Below are positions 26,270 to 44,754 of a DNA stretch of 64,000 nt, piece by piece (within the stretch, counting starts at the first letter, position 1; every line of letters begins with the position of its first letter). Both the position numbers and the translations under genes were made by a program. This DNA comes from an uncultured Muribaculaceae bacterium. GTDB lineage: Bacteria > Bacteroidota > Bacteroidia > Bacteroidales > UBA932. Where the stretch lies: positions 758 through 64,757 of the forward strand of contig CAYGGD010000001.1 in the NCBI GenBank assembly GCA_964349315.1, read 5' to 3'. The notes under the pieces are model-generated. The model saw only the letters and a list, made by a program, of their open reading frames with translations, searched no databases and was not told where the DNA came from.

Positions 26270-26274
26270 CACAC

Positions 26275-28384: not shown

Positions 28385-29003
28385 CTTTAATTACAATATT
28401 GCGCTTTTGATTACTAAAAACATACTCTGTATACCCTCCGGACCCCTCCTCAATCAACAACCTCTCAATCTCTGCACTTGTCGAATCGAAGGTTATGGTA
28501 ATTTTGCTTATAATGGCCAAAAGCTGCCTGTTAACCGGAGTTACAGCAACTATTACCTTATCCGGCAAAGAGAAGAACTCTACCCCGTAGGAGTTACTCC
28601 TGGCTGAGAGTCTGCCTAAAAATGATGCAGAAATTAGTCCTCTGACCTCTTCCATAACAGGATTATTTTTAAGATCCATAGTGTTATCACTCCCTTCGGA
28701 TACTACTCTTAATTTATTTCCATTGATTATCATTTGATAATCTGCCGGTTCTCTGTATAAAAAAGCAATCTTATCTTCCCTTTTATAAAGGAAAACCCCT
28801 TTTGAAATCATCTTGTTCTTTAACATCGGGATGCTCTTCTCCTGAGTAAAGGCTGCACTTAAGCTCTCTGTTCCGGAAGCAACCTGCGTAAGAAGCTTGT
28901 TAAACTCCTCTCTCTCATTAGCAGGCAAAGTAACGCTCTGAGAAAAAGCAATTTGCACTCCAAACAACAATGTAAGTATCCCAATAAAAATTCTTTTTTT
29001 CAT
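28362..29003 (-). CDS. LolA-family periplasmic lipid carrier (cluster copy 1)
   Basis: Signal peptide ending AFS-Q; SAAFTQEKSIPML..SKGVFLYKREDKIAFLYREP. Confidence 0.8.
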   Translation of the reverse strand: MKKRIFIGILTLLFGVQIAFSQSVTLPANEREEFNKLLTQVASGTESLSAAFTQEKSIPMLKNKMISKGVFLYKREDKIAFLYREPADYQMIINGNKLRVVSEGSDNTMDLKNNPVMEEVRGLISASFLGRLSARSNSYGVEFFSLPDKVIVAVTPVNRQLLAIISKITITFDSTSAEIERLLIEEGSGGYTEYVFSNQKRNIVIKDEVFRVN

Positions 29004-29668
29004 TTTAAAACCGTTGTATTTAACCTCCTGATTTTAATCGTCTCCAAAACCCCCTCCACAACCTCCACAGAGCCAGGCAACGAGTCGTGAAGCAAAATTA
29101 TTCCCCCGGGAGATAGTCTCTTTTCTACCCTCTTAATAATGTTTCTTTTAGATTTTATAATAGTATCAAAGCTTCTTATACTCCAGCCTACACATACCAG
29201 ACCCATCTCTCTTACCGCTTTTGCAATATTGGGGTTGGTAACTCCGTATGGAGGGCGAAACAGTATCACCTCCCGGCCCGAGATCTCCTCAAGCACCTCA
29301 CGGCATCTTGTTAAATCTGCCTTAACTCTCTCTGCCGATAATAGTGTAAACTCAGGCGTGTGATTCATAGAATGAATCCCAATAGTATGACCCTCATCTG
29401 CAACTCTCTTTACCACCTCTGGGTTGGCAACAGCTCTCTCCCCAATCATAAAGAAGAGAGCTTTAACGCCTCTCTTTGCAAGCAAATCCAGCACCTTACC
29501 TGTATAAATAGGATGGGGACCATCGTCAAAGGTAATCATAACCTCCTCTTTTGAACCGGGCAATCTGTTTACCGATCGCAAATAGAGGTTCCACCCGATG
29601 TTAAGAGATCCGGCAAAAAGTACCGTTAAAGAAATCAGTACAACTATTATGATTAACACTATTATCAA
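29000..29668 (-). CDS. Polysaccharide deacetylase (NodB/CE4), N-terminally membrane anchored
   Basis: All five CE4 motifs: TFDDGP, HSMNH, FRPPYG, GWSIRSFD, LLHD. Confidence 0.9.
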   Translation of the reverse strand: MIIVLIIIVVLISLTVLFAGSLNIGWNLYLRSVNRLPGSKEEVMITFDDGPHPIYTGKVLDLLAKRGVKALFFMIGERAVANPEVVKRVADEGHTIGIHSMNHTPEFTLLSAERVKADLTRCREVLEEISGREVILFRPPYGVTNPNIAKAVREMGLVCVGWSIRSFDTIIKSKRNIIKRVEKRLSPGGIILLHDSLPGSVEVVEGVLETIKIRRLNTTVLK

Positions 29669-29699
29669 AATATCTCTCTGTTAAAATTATGCCTTCTGA

Positions 29700-30620
29700 C
29701 TATCTCTGAATTATCATCAGCGATGCTGCCTCGTTAAGATAACTGTTTATTATTAGTACATACTCTCCTATCTCTGAATTTGACAACAGATTTACTCCCC
29801 TCCAGAGTCCATAGGCAGCCGAGGTGGGATACTCTCCGCAGCAGAGTTTATAATACTCTGTATCTATTTTCATATCTTCGAAATAGCTGCATAAAGAGTC
29901 TCTCCCGCAAACAACTGCCCTCAATCGGCTAAACGATAGTCCACAGCTCTGCAGTAACTCTTCGCTTTTTTTAATAATCTCGTTATCAGATAAATTTCTC
30001 CTCAATATTTCCAACGCCACAATCTTTCCCATTGATCTCTCTGCTTTCGCAGGTGAAAGAACAAAAAAAGTAGATCCCTCTCCTCTGATATGTTTTCTCC
30101 ATATACCCATTCTATTAAGAAGATTCTCTTTAGTGGGTGTTAGCTCATCAAACCCACCAGCAAGGATTCGCTCTCTTCCCTCCACTGCAAGCATAGAGGC
30201 ATCAATAATTGCAGCTTCGAATGACCCTCCACCGTGTACAAATGTGTTGTTATAGTGGTTATCGCTCAATATAAGTGCAATCTGAGACCCAATCGTATTG
30301 GAGGTGCTCTGGATAAAGGATGCGGGATTAAGCATCCGCTCGTTGTTATCCAAAATAGAGATCAGAAACTTCTCTGTATCTGCAAGACAACCCCATCCTG
30401 TTGCGGTAACAATTGCATCAATTTTATTGTTCCCGGAACTCTCTAATGCCATTAGGGCAGATGATATTCCCATACGATTTATTCTGCTCATTCTTCTTCT
30501 TACTCCGGCATCAGGAATATAGAGCTTATAGTCCGGCTCCGGTTGCAAGAGTCTCTCCTGAGCTGAACCACTAAAATTTATAGTGGCCATACCATTAATA
30601 TAGAGATTCATGCCTTTCAT
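29700..30620 (-). CDS. Chain-length factor (non-catalytic ketosynthase partner)
   Basis: RRMSRINRMG, ATGWGCL, NPASFIQSTSNTIGSQIAL; no catalytic Cys motif; follows a KS. Confidence 0.85.
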   Translation of the reverse strand: MKGMNLYINGMATINFSGSAQERLLQPEPDYKLYIPDAGVRRRMSRINRMGISSALMALESSGNNKIDAIVTATGWGCLADTEKFLISILDNNERMLNPASFIQSTSNTIGSQIALILSDNHYNNTFVHGGGSFEAAIIDASMLAVEGRERILAGGFDELTPTKENLLNRMGIWRKHIRGEGSTFFVLSPAKAERSMGKIVALEILRRNLSDNEIIKKSEELLQSCGLSFSRLRAVVCGRDSLCSYFEDMKIDTEYYKLCCGEYPTSAAYGLWRGVNLLSNSEIGEYVLIINSYLNEAASLMIIQR

Positions 30621-31822
30621 ATTAAACTCCTTTTATCCTGTTTAAATATTATAGATGAGCAGTTTCCTCCAAAACCGAATGAGTTTGTCAGAACCGCCTT
30701 CATCCCCTCCATTTTTGTAACCTCGGTAACCGGAACCATTCCCGGAACCTCCTCGATACTCTCTTTAAAATTTAAATTAGGCCAATGGTATCCCTGAGTT
30801 AAGCTAAGAATAGCAAAGACAGACTCCACTCCTCCGGCAGCACCAAGCGTATGTCCGGTAAAACCCTTTGTAGAGCTAAAAGGGGGTATATCTCCGTTAA
30901 AGAGTCTGTTTATCGCTACTCCTTCCGAAGCGTCGTTGTTGGGAGTTCCGGTGCCGTGAACATTTATATAATTTATATCACTGATCTTTAAACCACTCAT
31001 CTCCAGAGCCCCACTCATTGCCATATACGATCCGGTGCCATCTGCAGAAGAGGCTGTTTGATGAAAAGCGTCGTTAGCATTGGCGTATCCTCCTATAAAA
31101 CAGTACCTTCGATGAGTCTTAACATTTGCAGAGTGAAGAAAAATATATCCCGCACCCTCTCCAAGATTGAGACCGCATCTGGAAGCATCAAAAGGGCGGC
31201 ATTGCTCTCTATCAAGAATACCCAAAGAGGAGAAGCCGTTAACGGTAAAACGGCATAATGAGTCGGTACCTCCGGCAATTACAGCGTCTAAAAGCCCGGC
31301 CTTAATCATCCTTGCCCCCATCATTATTGCATTGTTGGCAGATGAACAAGCTGTATTTATGGTGGTTACGAAACTCTCTATACCCAATTTTTCTGCGATA
31401 AACTGTGTTGATGCTCCACAATCGTGACCCATAAGTTGTCTTAATCTTCCTCCGTTGCTGTCTTTAATGTAATGACTGTAAAAGTTCTCACTAATATCCA
31501 TCCCCCCTACAGATGTTGCAGATATAAAACCTATCCTGAGTCCTTTAATGTTTACACCGGAATCTTCTAATGCCTCAGCAGCAGCGAGAAGCCCCAGCAA
31601 AGTGGTTCTGGAATACTCTCTGCCTCCGTTGAGCCCTGCCAAAACGGCAAGCTCCCGGTTGGAGTGATTTACCTCCCCAACTATAACATCGTGACTGGTC
31701 TCAAACAGCGTAAGAGGGCCAAGGGCTGTCTCTCCGGCCATAAGCCCGCGTAACTGCGCAGCTTTCCCGACTCCCATAGCTGTAATTGCCCCAAGGCCGC
31801 CAACATAAACTTCTTTAGTCAT
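30617..31822 (-). CDS. Beta-ketoacyl-ACP synthase (polyene KS-alpha)
   Basis: TACSS, HGTGT, GHTLGA triad; NSFGFGG. Confidence 0.93.
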   Translation of the reverse strand: MTKEVYVGGLGAITAMGVGKAAQLRGLMAGETALGPLTLFETSHDVIVGEVNHSNRELAVLAGLNGGREYSRTTLLGLLAAAEALEDSGVNIKGLRIGFISATSVGGMDISENFYSHYIKDSNGGRLRQLMGHDCGASTQFIAEKLGIESFVTTINTACSSANNAIMMGARMIKAGLLDAVIAGGTDSLCRFTVNGFSSLGILDREQCRPFDASRCGLNLGEGAGYIFLHSANVKTHRRYCFIGGYANANDAFHQTASSADGTGSYMAMSGALEMSGLKISDINYINVHGTGTPNNDASEGVAINRLFNGDIPPFSSTKGFTGHTLGAAGGVESVFAILSLTQGYHWPNLNFKESIEEVPGMVPVTEVTKMEGMKAVLTNSFGFGGNCSSIIFKQDKRSLI

Positions 31823-31823
31823 A

Positions 31824-33575
31824 TCAATCTCTTTTACAGAGTTTAAGATCTATATCATATCTCCCTTTAAAAAATTCACACCATCCAATAACAGCCACCT
31901 TAACTGTGCTGTCTCCTGCTAAAATCATAAGTTCTTCCATAGTCTCGCTCCTTCGCTCCGATGTTGTAACAAAAAAAGTATTCTCCCCTTGGAACTTAAA
32001 TCGAATTGCAGACTCTCCCATAAGTATATTGGGCAGAGTATATACAAATATTGCAGGACTAACACTAGTATCCCCTTTTGTCAATATCTCATTCTGGTGA
32101 CGGATATCGGTATCGAGTGATGAGGAGCTGTTCGCTATAAAGAATCCGTAATCAAAGGGATTTCTGTTCTCTTCCATCTCATAATCCTTCAACAGAGAAG
32201 CTGTTGCTATAACACCGGCTTTTGAGAGATTGTCCATTTTAAAAAACTTTATGTCTTTCATTTCAAGCTCTTTATACTTAGCCCTTATCACACTGTCAAA
32301 ATCTCCCTCTCCCTTTAAAACAAAACGAGAGAGCTGTTGCCACTCATTTTCTGAATCTCTCCTGCCTTTGCCATAATGGGTAGTTCCCTTGATAGAGGCA
32401 GACTCCTTTGCAAATACAATTGCCGCATTACATCCGCCAAACCCGGATGCACTCTTAAGGCACCTGCTTAACTCCATCGGAGCATCTTTTGATGTTACTT
32501 GTAGTTTCATCGGAACTCCCGGTTCTTGATACCCCATTGTACCCAGGAGCCGTGAGTTTCTTATCTGCCAAAAAGAGGCGACTGATTCAACAACTCCGGA
32601 GGCTCCGAGAGTATGCCCCCAATATGGTTTAAGGCTCTGTACGGGAACACTGTTTAACGACGCCAGATGGATTGCTTTTGACTCCATCTCATCGTTATAA
32701 GTTGTTGATGTTCCGTGAGCATTAATAAAACTAATGTGAGAGGCAGATAGTCGGGCGCACTCAAGAGCTCGCAGCATGGCTGTCCCAAGCCCGTCACCTG
32801 TGCGTGAGGGGGCAGAGAGGTGGTTAGCGTCGTTAGTTACTGCTCCTCCCTCTATTACAATAGGATCAAAATCTTTTGCATACTCTCTTTTATTGGATAG
32901 AATAACAACTCCTACCGCCTCGCCCAAAGAGAGACCATCTCTTGATGCGTCATAAGGTCTGCAGATAGTCGGACTAATCGAGTGAAAGGCCTCAAAACCA
33001 CTTACAACAAACTTTGTCATTTCATCGGCTCCAACCACTATCACATTGTCGCAGCGAGAGTTTTCAATTAACCGCGCAGCTGTAATCAAGGCATTTACCC
33101 CTGATATACATGCATTTGAAAGAACAAGAGGAGTGCTTTTTAATCCAAGGTAGCGGTTAATACGCTCTGCCGACTCTCCTGGAAAGAGCTCCGCAGGCAA
33201 ATCTGCTTCGCCATCCTTAATAAGAGAGATATTTGCCTTTGTTGTGGCATATACTAATCTTGTGTTCTCTTTAATAAGAGTATCCAGTGACACTCCGCAT
33301 ACAAGTGCTGCATCTTCAACAGCAAAGATAATTCGCCTCTCAAGAGTTGTAAACGAAAGTAATAGCTCATTAACTATACGGGCATCCTCTGATACTCTTG
33401 CTCCGTTAAAGGGAACAGAATATATATCAGAATTATCTACCCTCTTTATTGCAGACACATTGTCTGATACCCTATTCATATTCTCCTTGGTGGAGAACCC
33501 CAGAGGTGAGTATATGGAGTCTGCAACTACATAAACCCTCTCTCTTACTTTATCAGTTTCCATTTTTTCTGCCAT
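31824..33575 (-). CDS. Ketosynthase fused to a C-terminal CLF-like domain
   Basis: NACIS, HGTST, GHTLGA, SASGFGG in the first ~390 aa; C-terminal FFKMDNLSK..SPAIFVYTLPNI CLF-like domain. Confidence 0.87.
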   Translation of the reverse strand: MAEKMETDKVRERVYVVADSIYSPLGFSTKENMNRVSDNVSAIKRVDNSDIYSVPFNGARVSEDARIVNELLLSFTTLERRIIFAVEDAALVCGVSLDTLIKENTRLVYATTKANISLIKDGEADLPAELFPGESAERINRYLGLKSTPLVLSNACISGVNALITAARLIENSRCDNVIVVGADEMTKFVVSGFEAFHSISPTICRPYDASRDGLSLGEAVGVVILSNKREYAKDFDPIVIEGGAVTNDANHLSAPSRTGDGLGTAMLRALECARLSASHISFINAHGTSTTYNDEMESKAIHLASLNSVPVQSLKPYWGHTLGASGVVESVASFWQIRNSRLLGTMGYQEPGVPMKLQVTSKDAPMELSRCLKSASGFGGCNAAIVFAKESASIKGTTHYGKGRRDSENEWQQLSRFVLKGEGDFDSVIRAKYKELEMKDIKFFKMDNLSKAGVIATASLLKDYEMEENRNPFDYGFFIANSSSSLDTDIRHQNEILTKGDTSVSPAIFVYTLPNILMGESAIRFKFQGENTFFVTTSERRSETMEELMILAGDSTVKVAVIGWCEFFKGRYDIDLKLCKRD

Positions 33576-33991
33576 TCTGTATAAAACTCAGGATTATTCC
33601 ACTCCAGCTCACCATTCGGGTTGAGAAAAACCTGCAGAGAGTAGCCGGTAGCAACAAGAGTGCTGTCACTCTCTCTGTAGATATCATATTCGAAGCGTAT
33701 TTTTGCCGCCGGTAAAAAAATATACTTTGTCTCCACAACTGCAATTTCACCGTATGTGAGCGGTTTTAGATAACTACAGTGCAGATCCACAATAGGGGCT
33801 GTGTAACCTGCTCCATAGATATCCAGATACCCAATTCCAAATCTCCTTCCAAAGGCCTCTCTGCCATCTTCAAAATACTTTACATAGTTCCCATGCCAGA
33901 CAATATTCATTGAGTCCACATCGGAAAAACGAACCTTAACGCTCTCCCTGTGAACAAGTGCCGCCTCTCTTAAACCTCTTCTCTTTCTCAT
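33545..33991 (-). CDS. Acyl-CoA/ACP thioesterase (4-HBT/YbgC hotdog fold)
   Basis: VRFSDVDSMNIVWHGNYVKYFEDGRE. Confidence 0.9.
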   Translation of the reverse strand: MRKRRGLREAALVHRESVKVRFSDVDSMNIVWHGNYVKYFEDGREAFGRRFGIGYLDIYGAGYTAPIVDLHCSYLKPLTYGEIAVVETKYIFLPAAKIRFEYDIYRESDSTLVATGYSLQVFLNPNGELEWNNPEFYTEWQKKWKLIK

Positions 33992-34007
33992 ATGATAAAC
34001 TCCTAAA

Positions 34008-34463
34008 CTATTTTTGTAAAAAAATCTTCAGTTCGGCTGAGGCAGCTTTTCTCTCTCCACAATAGAGAACAGCCTCAACAAGAGATATATCCCCAAACTC
34101 TCCCAACTCTCTTATATGAGTAATAATCTCTTTACCCACAAGTGGAAACTCTGTTATCACAAACTTAGATACCGCACCAATGAAACCCACAGGTACACTC
34201 TCACCTCTGCTTATAAATTTATATCCTGTTACTGCAGCTGCAGATTGAGCCATATTCTCTATTACTCCGGGTTCGGTCAAACAAATATCATCAGCTCCGG
34301 AAACAGACTTGGTAAAGAGTGTTTCTGCAACCGGAGTAAAACCGGTAACCTGATTACCATCTATCTCTCCGTAGTAACTCTCCACAAAAACAAAAGGCGC
34401 TCTCTGGGGAATCAGCTTCAATATCTCCTCCCCGGTAACTATGGCTTTCTCAAGTACTCCCAT
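34008..34463 (-). CDS. Hotdog-fold dehydratase partner (ApeP-like)
   Basis: LIPQRAPFVFV, VIENMAQSAAA, VGFIGAV. Confidence 0.8.
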   Translation of the reverse strand: MGVLEKAIVTGEEILKLIPQRAPFVFVESYYGEIDGNQVTGFTPVAETLFTKSVSGADDICLTEPGVIENMAQSAAAVTGYKFISRGESVPVGFIGAVSKFVITEFPLVGKEIITHIRELGEFGDISLVEAVLYCGERKAASAELKIFLQK

Positions 34464-35833
34464 ATTAAACCTTTTTTCTTTTTTAAAACTCTGATTCTGT
34501 CTATATCTGCCGATAAAGGGTCATCCGGAAAAATCCATGCTTTTCCGGTCTCTTTTGCCATCTCCCTGCACCTCTCCAGCGAAAAGTCCTTAGCCAGATA
34601 GTAGGTGGGATCGAGAAGCGAGTCTTCTGCAGATATCGTTCCATCCTCAATTGCCATTCTGTGCAATGGCGTACCCGGATATATCCTCATACCAATATAT
34701 GGGAAAAATACCGAATATCGAATTTTTTTTGAGTTCTCCATTGTCTCTCTGAGCGTCTTCTCTGTCTCACCAATTCCTCCTAATATAAGAAAATGAGCAT
34801 AAAAAATATTGTATTTAAACGCCCTGTGTGAGTTGAGCAACACATCTTCTATGGTAAAATTTTTGCCGTAACGCTGCATCTGTTCTGAACACAGAGACTC
34901 TGTTCCAAATTCTATGTGCTTAAGCCCTGCTCTTTGAAAGAGTGCAAGCAGATCGTCGGTTAGGTTATGGGGAGAGAAGTATGCACCCCAATTGATTTTT
35001 ATCCCGCTTTTAATGATTTTCTCTGCAAGTTGGGCATTGTAACTGTTGTGTATATTAAACACCGAATCTGTAAAAAAGACATAGTTTATCCCCTTATCTC
35101 TGCACAGCCTCTCAAGCGTACCAACAATAAGGTCTGTATCGAGAGTTCTCACACATCTTCCGTCAATTATCGGGTATGAGCAATAAATACAGTTATAGCA
35201 GCACCCTCTTTTTGTCTGAATATTCAACATACCACTACTCTCCCAGTAGAAGTCCGATAGCTTCTCGTCAAACTGCAAATTGAGGTTGTTGAGATATTTG
35301 GTATGAGGATTAACTACCAAACCTCCTGTCTCTTTAGATATAAGCCCCTCTATTTTACTATAATCATTAATCTTATCCTGGCTGCCATCTGCTACATAAT
35401 TGTTAAGGGCAAGTATCAACTGGCGCAGACTCTCCTCCCCCTCCCCTGTAATTCCATAATCGGGGCTCAGCAGTTGAAATAACTTTTCGGGAAAGATTGA
35501 GAAGCCGGCACCACCCATTATTACAGGCGCGTTTGTGCTTGCTCTCACAGCATCCATTATTTCTGAGTATCCGGGAATAAAACTAGTCATGTCCAGAGAG
35601 TTGGCTCCATCGATATTTCTTATCGAAACTCCAACCCAGTCCGGCGAATACTCCTTTATCTCAGTCTCAAGCTCAGAAACCGTTATCAGGTTCATATCTG
35701 ATATCTTAACATCCAGCCAATCTATTTTACTTAATAGATATGTCTTAAGATAAGAGAGGCCCAGGGGATACACCGGACAGGGGTCTGCAAGTCTGTTTGC
35801 AGATATCAGCAGAAATTTTTTCTCTCTTCTCAT
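34439..35833 (-). CDS. B12-binding radical SAM protein (lipid-biosynthesis-associated class)
   Basis: N-terminal cobalamin-binding domain (PVYPLGLSYL, GVSIRNID), CCYNCIYC containing CxxxCxxC, FGTES, RIYPGTPL. ATG 35833 overlaps the upstream TGA (ATGA). Confidence 0.9.
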   Translation of the reverse strand: MRREKKFLLISANRLADPCPVYPLGLSYLKTYLLSKIDWLDVKISDMNLITVSELETEIKEYSPDWVGVSIRNIDGANSLDMTSFIPGYSEIMDAVRASTNAPVIMGGAGFSIFPEKLFQLLSPDYGITGEGEESLRQLILALNNYVADGSQDKINDYSKIEGLISKETGGLVVNPHTKYLNNLNLQFDEKLSDFYWESSGMLNIQTKRGCCYNCIYCSYPIIDGRCVRTLDTDLIVGTLERLCRDKGINYVFFTDSVFNIHNSYNAQLAEKIIKSGIKINWGAYFSPHNLTDDLLALFQRAGLKHIEFGTESLCSEQMQRYGKNFTIEDVLLNSHRAFKYNIFYAHFLILGGIGETEKTLRETMENSKKIRYSVFFPYIGMRIYPGTPLHRMAIEDGTISAEDSLLDPTYYLAKDFSLERCREMAKETGKAWIFPDDPLSADIDRIRVLKKKKGLIWEYLRKP

Positions 35834-36729
35834 TTCCAAAACTTATAATAATTATACCACTGCTCAGGTGCTGTTTTTACAACTCTCTCAAGACCTTTTA
35901 CATAAGTTTCCAAAATAGTGTTCTCCCTTTTTTCAGATGCAAATGCTGACTCCTTTTTGCAGAGCTCGAAATGGAACAGATATCTCTTGTAACCTGTCCT
36001 GATTGCATAATAGAAAACAACAGGTACATCAAAACGGGCTGCAATTACAAACGGACCAATGGGAAACATAGCTTTTGATCCCATAAAATCCATCTCTGCA
36101 CCTCTGCCTCCGGTGTTAATCCGGTCTCCTTGAATAGCAATATACGCTCCCTCTTCAAGAGCATCTCTTATCTCAAAGATGTGTGAGAGAGAATCCTCCT
36201 TAACAGGAATCACAGTAAAAGTTTCTACCCTTTTTTGAGCCTCAAGTATCTGTTTGATCTTCTGATACTCAGAATCTACCATCACTACCCGCATCTTCTT
36301 TCCGTATTTACCAAAATATGGAGCGCCAATTTCCCAGTTTCCAAAATGGGCACCTAAAATAACAGCACCTGTGCTGCTGTTAAGTACATCTTTGACCTCG
36401 CCGGGTTCGTGAAAATCAAATTTAAACTGCTCATACAATCCGGCAGAAGCAGCCGTCTTGTCTATTAGAGCAACCCCTAAATTAAAAAAGCTTTTATAGA
36501 TGAAAACCAATGAAGAGAGAACACCTTTTCCAAGAATCTTACGTGAATAGAACCAGACAGATGCAGTTGCTCCGGGGGCGAAAGGGATATAATAGATAAC
36601 GACAAATGACAACAGCACATATGCCATTGTCACCCCTAAATACTTGATGATAAATACGAATGTGAGATATCCGGCGGCTCCTCCCCTCGATTTACCACTC
36701 CACTCATTTTGGGGTCTCCTTTTTTTCAT
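35830..36729 (-). CDS. LpxL/LPLAT-family acyltransferase
   Basis: WSGKSRGG N-terminus, GAHFGNWE (H-x4-E), IQGDR, FMGSKAMFPIGPF, PEQWYNYY. Confidence 0.88.
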   Translation of the reverse strand: MKKRRPQNEWSGKSRGGAAGYLTFVFIIKYLGVTMAYVLLSFVVIYYIPFAPGATASVWFYSRKILGKGVLSSLVFIYKSFFNLGVALIDKTAASAGLYEQFKFDFHEPGEVKDVLNSSTGAVILGAHFGNWEIGAPYFGKYGKKMRVVMVDSEYQKIKQILEAQKRVETFTVIPVKEDSLSHIFEIRDALEEGAYIAIQGDRINTGGRGAEMDFMGSKAMFPIGPFVIAARFDVPVVFYYAIRTGYKRYLFHFELCKKESAFASEKRENTILETYVKGLERVVKTAPEQWYNYYKFWK

Positions 36730-36967
36730 CTAAGCGAGAATTGATAAAGTGATAAAAGTCATTAAACGTTTTAATGCCTGTAAAATCCTTTGCAACAACA
36801 GTAAATCCGAAATTATGCTCAATAAGAACCACCATATCTACCAGATCAAGACTATCCAGATTAAGTGTTTCCATTAAAGGTGCATCAGGTTGAATCATAT
36901 CTGCATCAACCTCAAATTCATCTGCAAGGACTGTGTTGATTTTTTGAATAAGTGCGGTATCAATCAT
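36704..36967 (-). CDS. Acyl carrier protein (cluster ACP 1)
   Basis: 87 aa, acidic, LNLDSLDLVD motif. Confidence 0.92.
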   Translation of the reverse strand: MIDTALIQKINTVLADEFEVDADMIQPDAPLMETLNLDSLDLVDMVVLIEHNFGFTVVAKDFTGIKTFNDFYHFINSRLDEKKETPK

Positions 36968-36973
36968 AATATT

Positions 36974-38206
36974 TTAATAACTATTTGTATCAATATCTTT
37001 TAGAATCAGTGTAGAGTTTGTGCCCCCAAAACCAAAAGAATTAGAGAGTAAATGATCAAACTTAAAGTCGACAAGTTTATTTGATATTCTGAGTCTTGAT
37101 GAGGCTTCGTCAGCTTTGTTATAGTTTATTGTAGGAGCAATAAATGAGTTTTTCATCATAAGAACAGAATAGACAATCTCGCTTGCACCTGCCATCCACA
37201 TCTCATGTCCGGTAAGACTTTTGGTTGATCCTACATATGGTTTGTGATCTCCGAAGACTTCGTCAATTGCCAGAGCTTCGTTAAAATCACCAATCGGAGT
37301 CGATGTCGCATGGGCATTGATATAACCAATATCTTCTCTCCTGACTCCCGCCAAATCGAGAGCCATTAATAAAGATCGCTTTGGACCTTCAATATTTGGC
37401 ACAGAAATATGGTCTCCGTTTGACGAAAAACCATAAGACAATATCTCGGCTAAAATTGGAGCCCCCCTCTTTATCGCAGATTCGTAACTCTCCAGAATTA
37501 CTGTTGCAGCTCCTCCGCTGGGAACAAGTCCATCTCTGTCGGCGTCAAAGGGCCTTGATGCCTCCAAAGGAGAGTCGTTTCTTACCGAGAAGGCGTTCAA
37601 ACCATCAAAACTGGAAACAGCATACTTGTTCACCTCCTGAGCTCCTCCGCAAATAATACACTCCTGAAGACCATTCTTTATCATCATAAAAGCCATTCCT
37701 ATTGAGTGTGAACCACTTGCACAAGCTCCTGCAATAGTCAGGTTAATACCCTTAAGTCTGAATATTACAGAAAGATTCATTGTTACTGTCGAGTTCATAG
37801 ACTGAAAAACAGAGCCCGACCCAACCAATGTAGTATTCTTCTTTTCTCTTATTAAATCGACCCCCTCAACTACGGCAAGAGCACTGCTGTCATTCCCGTA
37901 CAAAATTCCAACCTCACGACTATCCAGAAAATTATCATTTATGCCCGCATTATTAAGTGCCTCTGCTGTTGCAACATACGCATAGGCCGCCTCCTGTGAC
38001 ATTGATATTCTCTTCCGTCTGTCAAGCACCTTTGTAAGATTAGGTTTGGGCAGAATACCCGTAAGGGATGAGCGAAATCCAAACTCAGCTCTCTCCGGAT
38101 CTATTCCTATTCCGGATTTTCCCTGTTTAAGAGAATCAAGAACATCATTTAAATTTTGTCCGATACATGAGTAGATTCCCATGCCTGTAATAACCACTCT
38201 GGCCAT
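36974..38206 (-). CDS. Beta-ketoacyl-ACP synthase (FabB/FabF-like)
   Basis: GACASG, HATST, TGHEMW, NSFGFGG. Confidence 0.92.
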   Translation of the reverse strand: MARVVITGMGIYSCIGQNLNDVLDSLKQGKSGIGIDPERAEFGFRSSLTGILPKPNLTKVLDRRKRISMSQEAAYAYVATAEALNNAGINDNFLDSREVGILYGNDSSALAVVEGVDLIREKKNTTLVGSGSVFQSMNSTVTMNLSVIFRLKGINLTIAGACASGSHSIGMAFMMIKNGLQECIICGGAQEVNKYAVSSFDGLNAFSVRNDSPLEASRPFDADRDGLVPSGGAATVILESYESAIKRGAPILAEILSYGFSSNGDHISVPNIEGPKRSLLMALDLAGVRREDIGYINAHATSTPIGDFNEALAIDEVFGDHKPYVGSTKSLTGHEMWMAGASEIVYSVLMMKNSFIAPTINYNKADEASSRLRISNKLVDFKFDHLLSNSFGFGGTNSTLILKDIDTNSY

Positions 38207-38234
38207 AAACTATTTATTTCTCTTATATATTTAG

Positions 38235-38963
38235 TTATGTATAAAGTCCTCCGTTTACAGATATCACCTCTCCTGTAATATAGGATGCCTCCTTTGAGGC
38301 AAGGAAAGCAACAACAGCCGCAACCTCTTCCGGCTTTCCAAATCTCTCCATAGGTATCTGCTTTCTGAGTACAGACTCATCCAGGTCGCTTGTCATATCA
38401 CTAATGATAAACCCTGGTGCCACTGCATTCACAGTAATACCCTTCTTTGCCACCTCTTGCGCTAACGCTTTTGTTGCAGCAATGACCCCCCCTTTGGATG
38501 CGGAGTAGTTTGTCTGTCCGGGAAGCCCCTTTATTCCTGATAGTGAAACTATATTTATTATCCTTCCAAATCTCTTTACAATCATATCCTTCAGAAGTGG
38601 TCTGGTAACATAGAACATTCCGCTAAGGTTTGTCTCAATAACACTGTGCCACTCAGACTCCTCCATCCACATCATCAGGTTATCACTGCGTATTCCTGCA
38701 TTGTTCACAACAATTTCAATATACTCTCCGGGGTTAGCCTCGCTCCACCCCTTTATAGCAGCCTCGGTTTGTTCTCTGTCCGAAACATCAAATTTAACGA
38801 GAGTTGATAAACCACCCGCTTGAGAAATAAGCTCAGCGCACTCCTCTGCAGCAATATCGTTAGATTTGTAGTTAATAAGAGTGTGATAACCCATAGCGGC
38901 GAGCTTTATAGCAACCGCCCTTCCAATACCTCTGCCTGCACCCGTAACTAAAGCGTATTTCAT
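38235..38963 (-). CDS. fabG: 3-oxoacyl-ACP reductase (cluster ketoreductase)
   Basis: TGAGRGIG, VNNAG, NYSASK (YxxxK), NAVAPG. Confidence 0.92.
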   Translation of the reverse strand: MKYALVTGAGRGIGRAVAIKLAAMGYHTLINYKSNDIAAEECAELISQAGGLSTLVKFDVSDREQTEAAIKGWSEANPGEYIEIVVNNAGIRSDNLMMWMEESEWHSVIETNLSGMFYVTRPLLKDMIVKRFGRIINIVSLSGIKGLPGQTNYSASKGGVIAATKALAQEVAKKGITVNAVAPGFIISDMTSDLDESVLRKQIPMERFGKPEEVAAVVAFLASKEASYITGEVISVNGGLYT

Positions 38964-38978
38964 TATAATACCTTTTTA

Positions 38979-40502
38979 TTATTTTGTATTTTTCAAGAAA
39001 TTTACAATAGCTTCAATCTCTTTATATTTAGGAGTATCGTCAGAAAATTTCGGAAAAAATTCTCTAATGGCAAAGTAGATCTCCTGACTCTCTTGTGAGA
39101 TTTCATTCTCTATGCCGAGATAATCTATCGCCTGTAAGAGCGCCATAAAGTGAATTGCCATAACCTGATACCCATTCTCAATTACTTTGGCGGCCATAAG
39201 TGCCGAATTTGTACCCATACTTACGATATCCTGGTTATCGTTATTGTTTGGGATTGAGTGGACATAAACAGAGTTTGAGAGAGTCTGAGACTCTGCTGTG
39301 GTGGATGTTGCAGTAAATTGTGCTGCCTGTAGCCCATAGTTAAGACCAAGTACCCCAAGATTTACAAACGGGGGTAGAATCCCGTTTATTTTATCGTGAA
39401 ACAGATAGTTTAGCTGCCTTTCGGTTAACATGGTAAGCTTTGTAATTGCAATTTTTAGCTTATCCATCTCAAAACTGACATAATCGCCGTGAAAATTACC
39501 TCCGTGATAGATATTTTGAGTTTCAGGGTCAACAACCGGATTGTCACATACACTGTTAAACTCCCTCTCAACCACGTCTTTAGCATTGCAAAGAGTATCA
39601 TAAACCGGCCCCAGAATCTGAGGAACGCATCTTAATGAGTAGTATCCCTGTACCTTTTCTTTAAAGATTCGGCTATTGTTACTCCCGTTATAAAGATCAG
39701 ATTCTCTTTTCTTTAATCTGGAAGATGTAGCGAATATCTCTCTCATCTGAGCAGCGATATAGAGCTGACCACTATGTGGCCTGCTATCCATAAGCGGTTC
39801 AGAAACAAAATCGTCATAGGAAAAGGCAATCTCATTCATCATCGCAGATGCCAGGGTTGCCCACTTAATTAGTTGTTGAGAGAAGTGGATATTTACAGCC
39901 GCTATTCCGGTCATTACACTGGTTCCGTTGGCAATGGCGAGCCCCTCTCTTATGTAAATCTCAAGTGGTTTTAAATTGCATTCCTTCAACACCTCTTTGG
40001 TCTCTCTCAACTCCCCTTTATAAAATACTTCTCCCTCTCCAATAAGTGCAAGCCCTATATGTGCCATCTGAACCAAATCTCCACTTGCCCCCACTCCTCC
40101 GTGCTCTGGAATCAGAGGACAGATATCATTGTTAAGGAAAGCAACAAGGAGATCACAAAGTTCTTTGTTCACCCCGGACTTACCCTTGAGAAAGTTTGAA
40201 AGTCTTGCAAGCATGGCAGCCCGAACATAAACAAGAGGTAACGCGTCTCCTGCACCACAAGCATGAGAACGAATAATATTGTACTGAAGGGATTTGAGTT
40301 GCTCATCCTCAACACGAAACTGGGCCATTGGTCCAAATCCGGTATTAATACCGTAAATCACCTTCTTCTTTGAGAAACTCTCGAGAAAATCATAACACTC
40401 AACAACCTTTTTCCGGACAGATTTATCAATAGAGATTCTCTCTATATTCAAAACAATCGAAGTTATATCTTGATAAGATAAATTAAGGCCTAATTCTATC
40501 AC
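38979..40502 (-). CDS. MIO-dependent aromatic amino acid ammonia-lyase, probable tyrosine ammonia-lyase (FlxA/FjTAL-like)
   Basis: YGINTGFG, GVGASGD (ASG forms MIO), NGTS, YSLRC, HGGNFHG, NNDNQDIVSMG. First gene of the cluster. GTG 40502 preferred because the longer ORF runs through the promoter and terminator. Confidence 0.88.
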   Translation of the reverse strand: MIELGLNLSYQDITSIVLNIERISIDKSVRKKVVECYDFLESFSKKKVIYGINTGFGPMAQFRVEDEQLKSLQYNIIRSHACGAGDALPLVYVRAAMLARLSNFLKGKSGVNKELCDLLVAFLNNDICPLIPEHGGVGASGDLVQMAHIGLALIGEGEVFYKGELRETKEVLKECNLKPLEIYIREGLAIANGTSVMTGIAAVNIHFSQQLIKWATLASAMMNEIAFSYDDFVSEPLMDSRPHSGQLYIAAQMREIFATSSRLKKRESDLYNGSNNSRIFKEKVQGYYSLRCVPQILGPVYDTLCNAKDVVEREFNSVCDNPVVDPETQNIYHGGNFHGDYVSFEMDKLKIAITKLTMLTERQLNYLFHDKINGILPPFVNLGVLGLNYGLQAAQFTATSTTAESQTLSNSVYVHSIPNNNDNQDIVSMGTNSALMAAKVIENGYQVMAIHFMALLQAIDYLGIENEISQESQEIYFAIREFFPKFSDDTPKYKEIEAIVNFLKNTK

Positions 40503-40526
40503 AATTAAAATTTTCCAAACAATTCG

Positions 40527-40555
40527 CAAAGATAGAAAAAAAAATGCCCTGACAA
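40527..40555 (-). promoter_or_regulatory. Promoter of the APE-DAR cluster
   Basis: TTG (40555-40553), 18-nt spacer, TATCTTTG (40534-40527), 24 nt before GTG 40502. Confidence 0.65.
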
Positions 40556-40588
40556 CATTATGTTTCCAGTACAAATGTATTCAGGGCA
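40536..40588 (-). terminator. Intrinsic terminator downstream of the 40612-41067 gene
   Basis: Minus strand: TGCCCTGAATACATT...AATGTTGTCAGGGCA stem (15 bp, 2 mismatches) followed by 9 T. Confidence 0.75.
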
Positions 40589-40611: not shown

Positions 40612-41067
40612 CTATCTCTGACATTTTTTGAGATACTTTGCCAATCTTTTTGCTCTCTCGCCGGAGAACTCTATAAAATCTGAGGTATCTTCGTATTTAT
40701 GAGGAACAAATTTAAGCAACTTGACTACTGCAAACTCCTCATCTTTGGTCATCATTACATCAAGACGGCCGCTTCCGTAGTCATTGAAGTAGATAATCAG
40801 AGTATTCTCATCAATCTCACCTCTCAAGATGTTTTCAAGGGCCGAAATGTTATCCTTATCGAAGTAGAAAGAGCTCCTTTTCACCGGGCTACCTGTCGGG
40901 TTATAAACTTCGTGTTTTATTCTGAATGCAAATAGTACCATTGCCAACAATATCAACAATATACCTGTAGACAGATCGGCAGAGATAAATGCAATAACAG
41001 AAATTGCGGCAATCAAAAAAGAGAGAACCAGTACTTTAATATTAACCTTTTTTATAATCGTATCCAT
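40612..41067 (-). CDS. Conserved hypothetical membrane protein (two N-terminal TMs)
   Basis: Two hydrophobic helices then VYNPTGS and KFVPHKYE; A-rich start context; followed by a terminator. Confidence 0.7.
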   Translation of the reverse strand: MDTIIKKVNIKVLVLSFLIAAISVIAFISADLSTGILLILLAMVLFAFRIKHEVYNPTGSPVKRSSFYFDKDNISALENILRGEIDENTLIIYFNDYGSGRLDVMMTKDEEFAVVKLLKFVPHKYEDTSDFIEFSGERAKRLAKYLKKCQR

Positions 41068-41168
41068 ATTTTTAGTTTTGTATGATTTTAGTTAAGATTA
41101 GATGTGTGCATAGCACAACACCCTGTATCGTTATCAGATACAGAATCATGTTCTTCCTAAAAAGAGGG

Positions 41169-41558
41169 CTAAACGATTATCTCTCTCAGATTATACACAA
41201 AGTAACTCTTACTGTATGTGAAGAAATGTGCTACTCCTTTCTCATTGTGTCCGGGCGTGTTAGCATACCTCTGCTCTAAAAGTCTCTCTCTAAAAAGTGA
41301 GAAGTGAGCATTTTTCCCCGATTTGCAATTGAAATAGTGAAAAGAGTAAGAGAGTCTGCTAAAAGGAATTACAGCCAAAATAGGCGTGGATTCCGAGAGG
41401 GTATATGAAAATTGGTTATTGAGAGGTGGTATTTGAGTATTTTTAGTCTTTGAACCCATCGAGAAATCGAGTAAAGCAAAGATAGTTACAATAGATAGCA
41501 ATGTAACCAGGCCAGTGAGTCCCACTAATCTCTTATTCAATCTATATACTCTTTTCAT
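41169..41558 (-). CDS. Hypothetical protein with a single N-terminal TM segment
   Basis: ATG preceded by TTG-N19-TACCTTCG promoter-like element; LVGLTGLVTLLSIVTIFALL helix; no recognisable family. Confidence 0.4.
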   Translation of the reverse strand: MKRVYRLNKRLVGLTGLVTLLSIVTIFALLDFSMGSKTKNTQIPPLNNQFSYTLSESTPILAVIPFSRLSYSFHYFNCKSGKNAHFSLFRERLLEQRYANTPGHNEKGVAHFFTYSKSYFVYNLREIIV

Positions 41559-41611: not shown

Positions 41612-42268
41612 CTAGGCAACAAGATCTGAGTTGCCTGAGAGGGTGAAGCTATCATTACGGTGCTCTCTCTCGTCAAGACCAATTCGTCTGAACACATCTG
41701 CCCAGTTTTCTACATCGGCATACCTCTTCACAAGAGGGTTCTCAACTTTTTGATTCTCCCACTCCGGATTATCTGAAACCATACCTGCATAAACATGCTC
41801 TGCATGGTCTTCAAACTCACCGTTAAAATGGAATGCCCCTTTTATGTTAATCCGGGCTATAATTTTTGCAATAATAATGTAGGTTAAAACAAAAAAGGCC
41901 GTAAAGAATGGCTTTAAATACCAGGCCTCTTCTATACCATCTTCTTTCATCTTTTCATTAATCACCTGAAGATGATCGAATTCGTTATCCTGAGCATGGC
42001 GGCTCCAATCAATTACCCCCTCGGCACTCGCCACCTTGTCCAGATTGCGGAAAGAGCGGGTTATATTTCTATACTTCCTGATTTCCCATTCGCGGTAAGG
42101 TATAGATGCAAGAATCTCCAAAAGCATTGCTTTTGACAGAGTGTTCTTCTTTCCTGTAACTAAATCCATCGAAAAGAAGAAGAATTGTGCGGCAAAACTA
42201 TATTTTAATCTTGGACGCGAAAGAGTTGCCATCTGTTCTGATCTTAGATCTGCTTGTTGTTTTTCCAT
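41612..42268 (-). CDS. Alternative oxidase/PTOX-like di-iron carboxylate protein
   Basis: LEILASIPY (E51), NEFDHL (E96/H99), FEDHAEHVY (E153, Y160), DEREH (E200/H203); hydrophobic stretch at residues 121-137. Confidence 0.78.
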   Translation of the reverse strand: MEKQQADLRSEQMATLSRPRLKYSFAAQFFFFSMDLVTGKKNTLSKAMLLEILASIPYREWEIRKYRNITRSFRNLDKVASAEGVIDWSRHAQDNEFDHLQVINEKMKEDGIEEAWYLKPFFTAFFVLTYIIIAKIIARINIKGAFHFNGEFEDHAEHVYAGMVSDNPEWENQKVENPLVKRYADVENWADVFRRIGLDEREHRNDSFTLSGNSDLVA

Positions 42269-44754
42269 ATACGTTTATAGTTAATTAGTTGTCCTGTAAT
42301 TGCGGCAATGGTCAATACCAAAAGGATGCCTGAAATTATTCTTGACATAAGCTCCCCTTTTGTAAAAGAATCTGGTTTAAACTCAAACTCAATTATGTTG
42401 TTTCCGGGGGGAACCTTTAATCCCCTTAAAACATAGTTTACACGAATAATCTCTGAAGAAACTCCGTTTACTTTGGCTTTCCAGCCGGCCGGGTAGTAAA
42501 TCTCACTGAAAACCGCAATTCTGGGCACTTCCGAATTGTAGCTGTAAACCAATTTGTTTGGCTCATAACTGACAAGCTCAATCCCCTCTTTGGCAGAGAG
42601 GGAATCAGCAGAGATTCCGGTAATTGCGTCGGCAAACTGAGAGTGAACAACCGCTGTGTTGTTTAAGTTCAATCCTCTGTTTACATCCAGCATTTCAATC
42701 TCCTGAGTGAGACTCTCCACCATATGGACATTGGTGACAAACCAGCTGTTTCCGAAAGCGTAAGTGTTAACCAGTGGCGGATTGTCCGGAGCAATTACGA
42801 TGTACCTGGTGTTAAGCATATTTAAAACCGGGTAAAAACCAAGGGCCTCCTGTGCCTGTTCAATAGTATTGACATCTGACAAATCCTGTGCTAGTGCACC
42901 TATTTCAGAGGTGATATGACGGTCTATAATATCCTGGTAAATCTGAAGTTTTGCAGGACTATAACCCCCGATTGTTTTATGGTGATAGCTGGTATGGGAG
43001 TCGTTAAAGGTATTAACGAATAAATCTAAAACCCTGTAATTAGGGTCTTTATCCTCCTTAATAGCAATATCTACAGGCCTTAGAGAATACTGATTTTCAA
43101 ACTCTGTACGCCTTACAAAATGTGTATCGTTCAAATAGCGTTTTCCTACAACCCATAAATCTAATATAATCAATAGCGCGACAGCTCCATACATCAGCTC
43201 TCTTTTGAGCTTTCCTTTAAATGAAAACCAAACCACACCGGCCGCAATTACAATAAAAGCAAGCGAACGTAAAGCATCTGCTCTTAAAAGAGCGATTCTG
43301 TCTGCTACAAGCGATTGTCTTAGTATGTCGGGCATTCTGGAATCGGCCTGAGATACAAACGAGCCGGCAAGAGAGGGTATAAGTGCAAAGAGAACGCAAA
43401 AACCTGCAGTGAGAGCCAATGCGACAGTAATCCCTTTTTTAAAATCTTTTTTAACGAATTCTCTCTCTTTACCACTTATTTTGTCCAGGACTAAAATTGC
43501 AAGGAGAGGTATGGTTATCTGAAGTATAACCAGAATCATCGACACCGTACGAAACTTGCTGTAAAGTGGAACATTTTTAAAGAAAAACTCTGTTAAAAAG
43601 AGCAGGTTCGATCCCCACGAGAGCAATACCGCCAGCAGTGAGACACCTGCAACCCACCATTTCAAGGGACCTTTGAGCAGAGCTAATCCCAGAACGAAAA
43701 GGAATACCGATATAGCCCCCATATACATCGGGCCTGCCGTAAAGGGCTGCGGCCCCCAGTACAGCGGCAATTGCCTGATAATTTGATCGGCCCCCCGGTA
43801 ACCTTCTGAGGTGAGCGCTCTGTATGTTTCGGAATCTCTTGAAAGTTTGCCTCCTGAGGCACCTCCGTTAAAGTTGGGAATCATAAGATTTGGCATCTCT
43901 TCGGGGCTGTACGACCAACTGGTGGCGTATGATATATCAAGGCCCCGCTGATCTTTTCCCTGTTCAAGTGCCAGCTCCGAGCCACCTCTCATGGTATATT
44001 TGGAATATTCGTAAGTTGGCCAAAGATGATTTACATTTACTGCAATACCGAGTAGCCCCGCAACCAGAAGCATAGCCGATTTTTTTATAAAAAGAGGCAG
44101 GCATCTCTTTTTTACAGCTGTGTACAATTCTGCAATGGCAAAGGCAACCACAATCATAGCCAAATAGTAGGTTATTTGTGGATGATTTGCCTTTATCTGA
44201 AAACTTAATGCAAATGCAAAAAGAACTGAACCCAAAATGCAATTTTTTCGATACGCATAGGTAATTGCAGCCAACACCCATGGCATAAAGGCAATAGCTA
44301 CCATCTTGGAGTTATGTCCCACCTGTATGATTTGCATATTGTATGAGCAAAAAGTGATAGCAAATGCACCTATTGCCGATAGCCATACATTTACTCCAAA
44401 GGCAAGAAAAAGCAAGAAAGCGCCAACCAAACTTATCAGCAGATAGCTTGGCGGACGGGTTCCCGATAGTTTGTGGATCAGCTTGTAAAAATAGTCGGTG
44501 TAGTCTCCCTGATAAATGACAGATATCGCAGTTGCCGGCATCCCTCCAAACATAGAATTTGTCCATAATGTCGGATCTTTCCCGGGGTTGGCCTCATTAT
44601 ACTCGATAATTTCATTTGCCATACCTCTCCAGGCAGCTATATCCGACTGGTTTACAACTTTATTGCTTAAAACCTGAGGTGTAAAAAGATAGGCCACCAC
44701 ATAAAACAGTGCAATAATTACAACATATGGCCAGTATTTTTTTAACGCTTCCAT
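42244..44754 (-). CDS. YfhO-family (GT-C fold) membrane glycosyltransferase
   Basis: LWTNSMFGGMP, ANHPQITYY, FTAGPMY, GGYSPAK, VFSEIYYPAGWKA; polytopic, 836 aa. Confidence 0.85.
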   Translation of the reverse strand: MEALKKYWPYVVIIALFYVVAYLFTPQVLSNKVVNQSDIAAWRGMANEIIEYNEANPGKDPTLWTNSMFGGMPATAISVIYQGDYTDYFYKLIHKLSGTRPPSYLLISLVGAFLLFLAFGVNVWLSAIGAFAITFCSYNMQIIQVGHNSKMVAIAFMPWVLAAITYAYRKNCILGSVLFAFALSFQIKANHPQITYYLAMIVVAFAIAELYTAVKKRCLPLFIKKSAMLLVAGLLGIAVNVNHLWPTYEYSKYTMRGGSELALEQGKDQRGLDISYATSWSYSPEEMPNLMIPNFNGGASGGKLSRDSETYRALTSEGYRGADQIIRQLPLYWGPQPFTAGPMYMGAISVFLFVLGLALLKGPLKWWVAGVSLLAVLLSWGSNLLFLTEFFFKNVPLYSKFRTVSMILVILQITIPLLAILVLDKISGKEREFVKKDFKKGITVALALTAGFCVLFALIPSLAGSFVSQADSRMPDILRQSLVADRIALLRADALRSLAFIVIAAGVVWFSFKGKLKRELMYGAVALLIILDLWVVGKRYLNDTHFVRRTEFENQYSLRPVDIAIKEDKDPNYRVLDLFVNTFNDSHTSYHHKTIGGYSPAKLQIYQDIIDRHITSEIGALAQDLSDVNTIEQAQEALGFYPVLNMLNTRYIVIAPDNPPLVNTYAFGNSWFVTNVHMVESLTQEIEMLDVNRGLNLNNTAVVHSQFADAITGISADSLSAKEGIELVSYEPNKLVYSYNSEVPRIAVFSEIYYPAGWKAKVNGVSSEIIRVNYVLRGLKVPPGNNIIEFEFKPDSFTKGELMSRIISGILLVLTIAAITGQLINYKRIWKNNKQI

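Follow-up and report, generated by a model that had tools for sequence, protein, structure and literature searches.

A divergent AOX/PTOX-superfamily protein in a putatively anaerobic Bacteroidales genome, a candidate haem-free menaquinol:O2 oxidoreductase

We analysed a 64,000-nucleotide stretch of DNA from an uncultured Muribaculaceae bacterium (GTDB lineage Bacteroidales; UBA932), namely positions 758 to 64,757 of the forward strand of contig CAYGGD010000001.1 in assembly GCA_964349315.1, hereafter the window. One of its genes encodes a protein that, judged by profile searches and its predicted fold, is a true di-iron protein of the alternative oxidase (AOX)/plastoquinol terminal oxidase (PTOX) superfamily and not a Coq7, ferritin or rubrerythrin. 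By sequence, it falls in a separate uncharacterised clade of this superfamily that is neither canonical AOX nor PTOX. We consider it probable that this AOX-like enzyme is a single-subunit, haem-free menaquinol:O2 oxidoreductase for O2 scavenging. A broader proposal, that the clade forms a third, overlooked AOX/PTOX branch of haem-free menaquinol:O2 oxidoreductases acting as the sole oxygen reductase in many strict anaerobes and haem auxotrophs from more than 15 bacterial phyla, is one that we put forward tentatively and would not yet favour.

A predicted di-iron protein with an AOX-type fold

The AOX-like gene and the parts of it discussed below, in the order in which they are translated, are as follows.

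41612..42268, minus strand: predicted AOX/PTOX-superfamily di-iron carboxylate protein, a single ATG-started open reading frame (ORF) of 218 aa, assigned from PF01786, the AlphaFold2 model and Foldseek
42155..42196, minus strand: N-terminal hydrophobic helix, residues 25-38, probable second membrane-binding helix, from the AlphaFold2 model and hydropathy
42095..42124, minus strand: motif 1, LLEILASIPY, residues 49-58, with iron ligand E51, from a script read-out of the translation
41969..41992, minus strand: motif 2, QDNEFDHL, residues 93-100, with iron ligands E96 and H99, aligning to NERMHL of trypanosome alternative oxidase (TAO)
41849..41911, minus strand: strongly hydrophobic helix, residues 120-140, probable membrane-binding helix, modelled between ligand helices 2 and 3
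41789..41815, minus strand: motif 3, FEDHAEHVY, residues 152-160, with iron ligand E153 and Y160, aligning to LEEEAVITY of TAO
41660..41677, minus strand: motif 4, LDEREH, residues 198-203, with iron ligands E200 and H203, aligning to RADEAEH of TAO

The initial annotation of the window had listed six di-iron ligands in the order E51, E96, H99, E153, E200 and H203, as well as a tyrosine seven residues past the third glutamate (Y160 relative to E153), and a script confirmed all of these in the translation. Its remark that the motifs resemble those of PTOX also proved sound: cyanophage PTOX shows LE..A..PY, NE..H, E.HA...Y and DE..H, whereas TAO has LEEEA at motif 3. Across an alignment of 35 sequences, some as little as 23% identical, there is no variation at G39, K46, E51, E96, H99, E153, Y160, E200, H203 and S207, and A54, P57 and Y58 are conserved at 90% or more; among 60 close relatives, 39 columns are invariant. 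Going by these alignments, the agreement in the ligand motifs is far beyond chance, and the gene appears to be under purifying selection, with the ligands, Y160 and K46 kept down to 23% identity. We take Y160 to be the equivalent of TAO Y220. As a lead, invariant K46, five residues before E51, would presumably match Arg118 in the quinol/inhibitor pocket of TAO.

Profile searches place the protein with AOX. It matches PF01786 at 30.8 bits against a gathering score of 22.7 (E 2.8e-7), covering positions 29-214 of the 216 in the profile, and 28 of 35 divergent relatives match this family individually. COQ7 (PF03232) scored 12.7 bits (E 0.097), below its 23.5-bit cut-off, and was matched weakly by four of the same 35 relatives; no Pfam rubrerythrin, ferritin or bacterioferritin model matched the protein at E <= 10. 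The initial annotation had proposed a profile comparison of AOX with Coq7 and ferritin-like models, holding that a grouping with rubrerythrin, ferritin or Coq7 would overturn the AOX reading. In that comparison AOX lay above threshold, COQ7 lay below it and the ferritin-like models went unmatched, and neither Pfam nor the predicted fold gave such a grouping. NCBIfam contained no matching model. When the single sequence was used as a phmmer query against the PDB, chance matches to GST and VgrG were the only ones returned and TAO was not retrieved. A profile built from 35 relatives retrieved TAO chains 9M2A, 9KUN and 3VV9 from the PDB at E 5e-6 to 8e-6, with motifs 2-4 (NE..H, E...A...Y and DE..H) and the tyrosine in register.

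The AlphaFold2 model, built on a 60-sequence alignment, is all-helical and has a pLDDT of 94.2 and a pTM of 0.90. Each of the six ligands falls in a predicted helix, with four helices supplying E, ExxH, E and ExxH. In a Foldseek search of the PDB, the top 14 matches were all TAO, at probability 1.00 and query-normalised TM scores of 0.66-0.75. Human COQ7 (7SSS and 7SSP) came next, at TM 0.35-0.45, and ferritin, Dps and bacterioferritin structures were found at E > 0.3 and TM <= 0.47. The helix at residues 120-140 has a mean Kyte-Doolittle hydropathy of 1.85, with a 19-residue maximum of 2.05, and aligns with the hydrophobic segment of TAO between the NERMHL and LEEEA motifs. The helix at residues 25-38 has a mean hydropathy of 1.36 and a hydrophobic moment of 0.89. 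In the model, these two helices fit the monotopic membrane-docking surface of AOX.

That the gene is decaying or non-functional, or the ORF a product of chance, we find hardly credible. Its rarity within the order is the single point that speaks for this idea, and against it stand an intact frame, GC content and third-position GC (GC3) equal to those of the surrounding genes, at least 970 homologous clusters, invariant ligands and a confidently predicted fold.

Relation to characterised AOX, PTOX and COQ7

The protein resembles the AOX of mitochondria and Pseudomonadota, with TAO as the structural reference (PDB 3VV9, 5ZDP and 9KUN), in its PF01786 match, its E/ExxH/E/ExxH ligand set, the motif-3 tyrosine and the predicted fold, as well as in the hydrophobic helix between ligand helices 2 and 3 and in apparently being a single stand-alone subunit. 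It differs in the forms of the motifs, which read LET, NERMHL, LEEEA and RADEAxH in AOX and LEIL, DNEFDHL, FEDHA and LDEREH in the window protein, and in its length of 218 aa, compared with 329 aa for TAO. The hosts differ as well: those of AOX are ubiquinone-using aerobes, whereas those of the window's clade are Bacteroidota and other non-Pseudomonadota phyla with menaquinone genes and, for the most part, without haem oxidases. We rejected membership of the canonical AOX clade, as the protein does not have the AOX motif forms and TAO was reached through the family profile only.

With PTOX/IMMUTANS the protein shares the motif variants LE..A..PY and E.HA...Y, which occur in cyanophage and cyanobacterial PTOX, and PTOX copies on cyanobacterial plasmids, at 226-239 aa, are near to it in length. 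The PHROG PTOX profile matched it weakly (E 7.6e-4), and an hhalign comparison with phage PTOX brought motifs 1-3 into register at E 3.5e-4. A tblastn search with the window protein against phage and plasmid records gave no match, and it took more distant family members to reach the PTOX of phages and plasmids; with a phage PTOX as the query, the best 120 matches were all near-identical marine PTOX. We built a quick tree of the window's clade, its uncharacterised relatives, three plasmid-borne PTOX-type sequences from cyanobacteria and three phage PTOX sequences. In this tree, the cyanobacterial and phage PTOX formed a clade of their own with 100% SH-aLRT support, and long, fully supported branches lay between it and all other sequences, those of the window's clade among them. 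The core clade of the window lay on one side of a branch with support 90, nested among other uncharacterised clades. Membership of PTOX was rejected, since the supported PTOX clade excludes that of the window. Moreover, unlike PTOX hosts, the hosts of the window's clade are non-photosynthetic and lack plastoquinone. A PF01786 search of 301 genomes around a carrier labelled 'Pseudomonadota' returned only members of the window's divergent clade.

Among the cyanobacterial plasmids, pREB1 of Acaryochloris marina (L110) and pn2 of Nostoc sp. UHCC 0926 (L109) carry PTOX-type 'alternative oxidase' genes that directly adjoin redox genes. One of the two lies next to a gene for the large subunit of nitric-oxide reductase, and the other next to genes for a 'hexameric tyrosine-coordinated heme protein' and a universal stress protein.

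COQ7/Clk-1, the demethoxyubiquinone hydroxylase, is likewise a membrane-associated four-helix bundle of the di-iron carboxylate type and has E and ExxH motifs. We rejected COQ7 membership on the 12.7 bits scored against a cut-off of 23.5 and the TM scores of 0.35-0.45; the ubiquinone pathway is, in addition, not expected in the carrier hosts. These comparisons bear on an alternative function that extends the O2-dependent lipid hydroxylase offered by the initial annotation beside quinol oxidation. The protein would then be no terminal oxidase but a di-iron hydroxylase or desaturase that uses O2 to modify a quinone or a membrane lipid by Coq7-like chemistry. The sub-threshold COQ7 matches of the protein (E 0.097) and of four relatives are consistent with this, as are the rank of COQ7 directly after TAO among the fold matches, the label 'demethoxyubiquinone hydroxylase' that some sources give to relatives, and the frequency of hydroxylation among di-iron four-helix bundles. 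The COQ7 score is nevertheless far below its cut-off, the fold match is poor next to the 0.66-0.75 for TAO, and the tyrosine aligned with the motif-3 tyrosine of TAO is invariant. Menaquinone requires no ring hydroxylation, and MenG was found in 43 of the 50 carrier genomes surveyed below; no reductase or substrate-pathway gene is conserved near the AOX-like gene at 81 loci. On balance, we regard a hydroxylase as unlikely and as the weaker reading.

Distribution of carriers

A word-indexed search returned at least 970 homologous clusters at E <= 0.001; identities among the best 120 range from 54 to 91% and lengths from 216 to 255 aa. An exhaustive search of representatives gave only 270 clusters at 50% identity, and the family is therefore compact. 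The sources name relatives 'alternative oxidase', 'ubiquinol oxidase', 'demethoxyubiquinone hydroxylase' or 'hypothetical', and because the NCBI pipeline already labels some members 'alternative oxidase', the family assignment as such is not new. Our literature search found no paper on the window's AOX-like clade.

In GTDB contigs sampled at one genome per species, we confirmed at least 568 loci in more than 15 phyla. According to record titles, carriers in the Bacteroidales include Paludibacter, Prolixibacteraceae, Marinilabiliaceae, Tenuifilaceae and Rikenellaceae. Elsewhere they include Ignavibacteriales, KSB1, Krumholzibacteriota, Omnitrophota, Planctomycetota, Verrucomicrobiota, Victivallis and Pontiella, as well as Anaerolineae, Syntrophaceae and other 'delta' lineages, Chrysiogenales, Gaiellales, Nitrospirota, Neomarinimicrobiota and 'Eubacteriales'. 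Many of the name tags of carrier metagenome-assembled genomes (MAGs) presumably point to anoxic habitats such as soda-lake sediment, Zodletone spring, digesters, groundwater and fen. Among the named carriers, Natronoflexus pectinivorans, Victivallis and Paludibacter have been described as anaerobes, and the cultured strain N. pectinivorans DSM 24179 carries a 61%-identical copy.

The initial annotation had called such a protein unexpected in this lineage, and our sampling agrees: whether we searched with the protein or with the profile, none of 150 other genomes of the host's order had the gene. Among these 150 are a genome of the same genus (G145) and one of the same family (G005). A PF01786 search of 401 Bacteroidota genomes returned no match and was discarded, as it missed even the host's own gene, which was found when the host genome was searched alone; weak matches can evidently go missing in searches of that size.

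On a tree of 80 loci, the label Bacteroidota changed four times, compared with 20 changes when labels were shuffled, and 39 of the 42 rows in the window's subclade were Bacteroidota. The window protein is sister to a 91%-identical copy (locus L010) in genome G151. We considered rampant recent transfer among phyla and rejected it, given how strongly the tree clusters by phylum. As read from these sequences, the family occurs patchily inside each phylum, and its transfer from one phylum to another was either ancient or limited.

Oxygen, haem and quinones in the host and other carriers

The host MAG (G000) comprises 1.98 Mb in 204 contigs, with an N50 of 15.5 kb, and is 90.7% complete by markers. 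Its nearest relatives, G151 and G145, have genomes of 2.7-2.8 Mb. Profile searches of the host MAG gave no match to CydA, COX1, ALAD or ferrochelatase, a result to be read against its small size relative to these genomes, and tblastn with the CydA and CydB of G145 found no match in it either. Three PFOR-type enzymes over the cut-off and one rubrerythrin are present. Together with the lack of any cytochrome bd, haem-copper oxidase, ALAD or ferrochelatase match, they give the host the look of an anaerobe, in line with the initial annotation.

The host MAG also encodes MqnA-family genes, two of them over the cut-off, and an MqnP-like prenyltransferase, and has no MenD over the cut-off; because of this, the host probably makes menaquinone by the futalosine route. 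The same genes make menaquinol plausible as the electron donor, as the initial annotation had suggested. In the host genome we found one UbiA-family gene only, an ORF of 249 aa (L001:1303-2052, contig C10) that covers the first ~180 of the ~290 positions of MqnP/UbiA-type models. It scores below every cut-off and may be truncated, frameshifted or divergent at its C-terminus.

We surveyed 50 carrier genomes from many phyla and compared them with the sample of 150 genomes from the host's order, which had been filtered at 85% completeness or more. MenG/UbiE, the menaquinone methyltransferase, exceeded its curated cut-off in 43 of the 50 carriers. Cytochrome bd was found in nine carriers and a haem-copper oxidase over the cut-off in eight, with 15 having one or the other. 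The haem-pathway enzyme ALAD was present in 22 and missing from 28, and 24 had neither ALAD nor a haem oxidase. Cytochrome bd occurred in 113 of the 150 genomes of the order sample and in six of the 16 carriers labelled Bacteroidota, a difference for which Fisher's test gives p 0.003, with kin among the genomes not being independent. These counts suggest that the AOX-like gene is biased towards genomes without haem oxidases or haem synthesis, and the distributions of cytochrome bd and the AOX-like gene look partly complementary.

The same bias in distribution would be expected of a quinol-driven detoxifier of H2O2, NO or an organic peroxide, comparable to the rubrerythrins and flavodiiron proteins of anaerobes, for which O2 would not be the physiological substrate. 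The chemistry of a di-iron site allows it to act on peroxide or NO, and one of the plasmid-borne PTOX-type genes described above directly adjoins the nitric-oxide reductase gene. Against these points, no member of AOX or PTOX is known to us to work in this way, the host already has a rubrerythrin, and the architecture of the site, including the tyrosine, matches that of O2-reducing enzymes. We give this alternative slightly less credence than the hydroxylase and think it unlikely.

A candidate haem-free menaquinol:O2 oxidoreductase

How the AOX-like enzyme might act as a menaquinol:O2 oxidoreductase can be set out from the model and the host's gene content. Four helices would carry E51, E96-x-x-H99, E153 and E200-x-x-H203 as an AOX-type di-iron centre, and the helices at residues 25-38 and 120-140 may attach the protein to a single leaflet of the cytoplasmic membrane. 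Electrons would be taken from menaquinol, apparently made in the host by the futalosine route, and O2 would be reduced to water at the di-iron site with neither proton pumping nor haem. Such an enzyme could serve as a non-energy-conserving O2 scavenger and a valve for the quinone pool, removing intruding O2 and re-oxidising the pool. The beneficiary would be a probable haem auxotroph with an oxygen-sensitive metabolism, which would gain this protection at little cost. We expect that the enzyme acts alone and that the neighbouring polyene genes play no part.

Cytochrome bd is an unrelated protein that is similar in the role proposed here, since it too is a (mena)quinol:O2 oxidoreductase that pumps no protons and by which anaerobes can withstand low O2. 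It depends on three haems, is built from two subunits and conserves energy, whereas the AOX-like enzyme would use iron only and conserve no energy.

Several points weigh against the oxidase reading. The window protein is only ~15% identical to TAO, and its alignment with phage PTOX is remote (hhalign probability 37%). The characterised members of AOX and PTOX all use ubiquinol or plastoquinol, and we know of none that uses menaquinol. Seven of the 50 carriers lack a clear MenG, and the closest carrier, G151, has cytochrome bd. That the AOX-like enzyme is the host's sole oxidase is not established, the host MAG being small relative to its relatives. The carrier genomes, unlike the order sample, were not filtered for completeness, and the 86% recovery of MenG among them is a rough control only. 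What probability is not taken up by the readings weighed in this text goes to something else, including an electron donor other than a quinol.

The O2 tolerance of anaerobes is usually ascribed to cytochrome bd, flavodiiron proteins, rubrerythrins and superoxide dismutase (SOD), and many Bacteroidales are unable to make haem. If our reading is true, a single-gene, iron-only quinol oxidase would be a fifth route to O2 tolerance, independent of haem. It could help to explain how some carriers without cytochrome bd and tetrapyrrole synthesis cope with O2, and 24 of the 50 that we examined are of this kind. In a 2025 survey of oxygen reductases (PMC7618691), AOX was restricted to Alpha-, Beta- and Gammaproteobacteria and PTOX to Cyanobacteriota. 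The clade described here, with at least 568 species genomes, lies outside that picture and could change inferences on when and where di-iron oxidases arose. Should the more tentative proposal of a third branch hold, it would overturn the confinement of prokaryotic AOX to Pseudomonadota and of PTOX to Cyanobacteria. It would also mean that the 'primitive di-iron oxygen scavenger' proposed long ago as a possible origin of the respiratory alternative oxidases has a living representative. Since the enzyme is small and free of partners and a cultured carrier exists in N. pectinivorans DSM 24179, the hypothesis is directly testable.

Genes around the AOX-like gene

Four further features of the window bear on the context of the AOX-like gene.

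42244..44754, minus strand: YfhO-like membrane protein, its 3' end overlapping the start of the AOX-like gene by 25 nt
40612..41558, minus strand: two small ORFs (129 aa and 151 aa), predicted to be membrane-anchored and with no Pfam match, between the AOX-like gene and an ammonia-lyase gene
22430-40574, minus strand: flexirubin/aryl-polyene-type lipid-pigment cluster, by the Pfam content of its ORFs
8391-9098, plus strand: Fe/Mn-family SOD, 235 aa, by Pfam

The YfhO-like and AOX-like genes are probably co-transcribed. Across the 81 loci, this gene order was found only in the 91%-identical relative, L010, where the order of genes is the same as in the window. The two small ORFs are also kept there, at 70% and 95% identity, and do not occur beside other family members. 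In the polyene cluster, at least four ketosynthase-type genes are accompanied by those for an aromatic amino-acid ammonia-lyase, a FabG-type reductase, a lipid A-type acyltransferase and a B12-binding radical SAM enzyme. It further holds a thioesterase, a polysaccharide deacetylase, LolA-like proteins, a FabA-GT2-DUF2062 fusion and a 1280-aa MMPL-acyltransferase-methyltransferase fusion.

Beyond L010, the surroundings of the family vary. Three other annotated contexts are unrelated, comprising TauE and CDGSH proteins in one, DnaJ in another, and a lipase with a Por-tail protein in the third. When all neighbours within 4 kb of the 81 loci were clustered all against all, no family recurred beyond closely related Paludibacter genomes. 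A Pfam scan of tightly adjacent genes on the same strand gave unrelated families (GNAT, VOC, SiaC, FabA, SnoaL and ferredoxin). Because no neighbour family recurs across the 81 loci and the contexts are unrelated, the AOX-like gene is a stand-alone unit whose position beside the polyene cluster is specific to its lineage.

In two Omnitrophota genomes, the AOX-like gene is preceded on its own strand by a gene for a FabA/FabZ-like dehydratase (L061:5511-5951 and L082:5555-5995), with a gap of 6-50 nt between them.

The initial annotation had linked the AOX-like protein to the polyene cluster as part of an adaptation to O2 exposure, and one could suppose a tailoring or accessory enzyme of this cluster, for instance in the re-oxidation of a carrier, as PTOX does in carotenoid desaturation. 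The AOX-like gene is on the same strand as the cluster, two small ORFs upstream of the ammonia-lyase, FabG and ketosynthase genes; the arrangement recurs in L010, and the two Omnitrophota copies directly follow a FabA-like gene. In the same-genus genome G145, however, the ammonia-lyase and FabG-type genes are present at ~68% identity without the AOX-like, YfhO-like or small ORFs, and no such cluster accompanies the gene at the 79 other loci. Clusters of this type form their double bonds by means of dehydratases, not quinone-linked desaturases. We rejected a polyene-tailoring role, which we judge very improbable, since none of the three contexts, the 81-locus clustering and the adjacent-gene Pfam scan gave a conserved operon partner. 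The proposed tie to the cluster thus found no support, its neighbour status not being conserved outside close relatives.

The SOD, which the initial annotation had drawn into the same adaptation, is indeed encoded in the window. Its specification as a Mn enzyme is not supported, the protein belonging to the Fe/Mn family, and a functional unit with the AOX-like gene finds no support either, as the SOD gene lies 33 kb away and is not a conserved partner. The Pfam domains of the SOD begin at residue 35, leaving an N-terminal extension of ~34 residues that is possibly an export signal.

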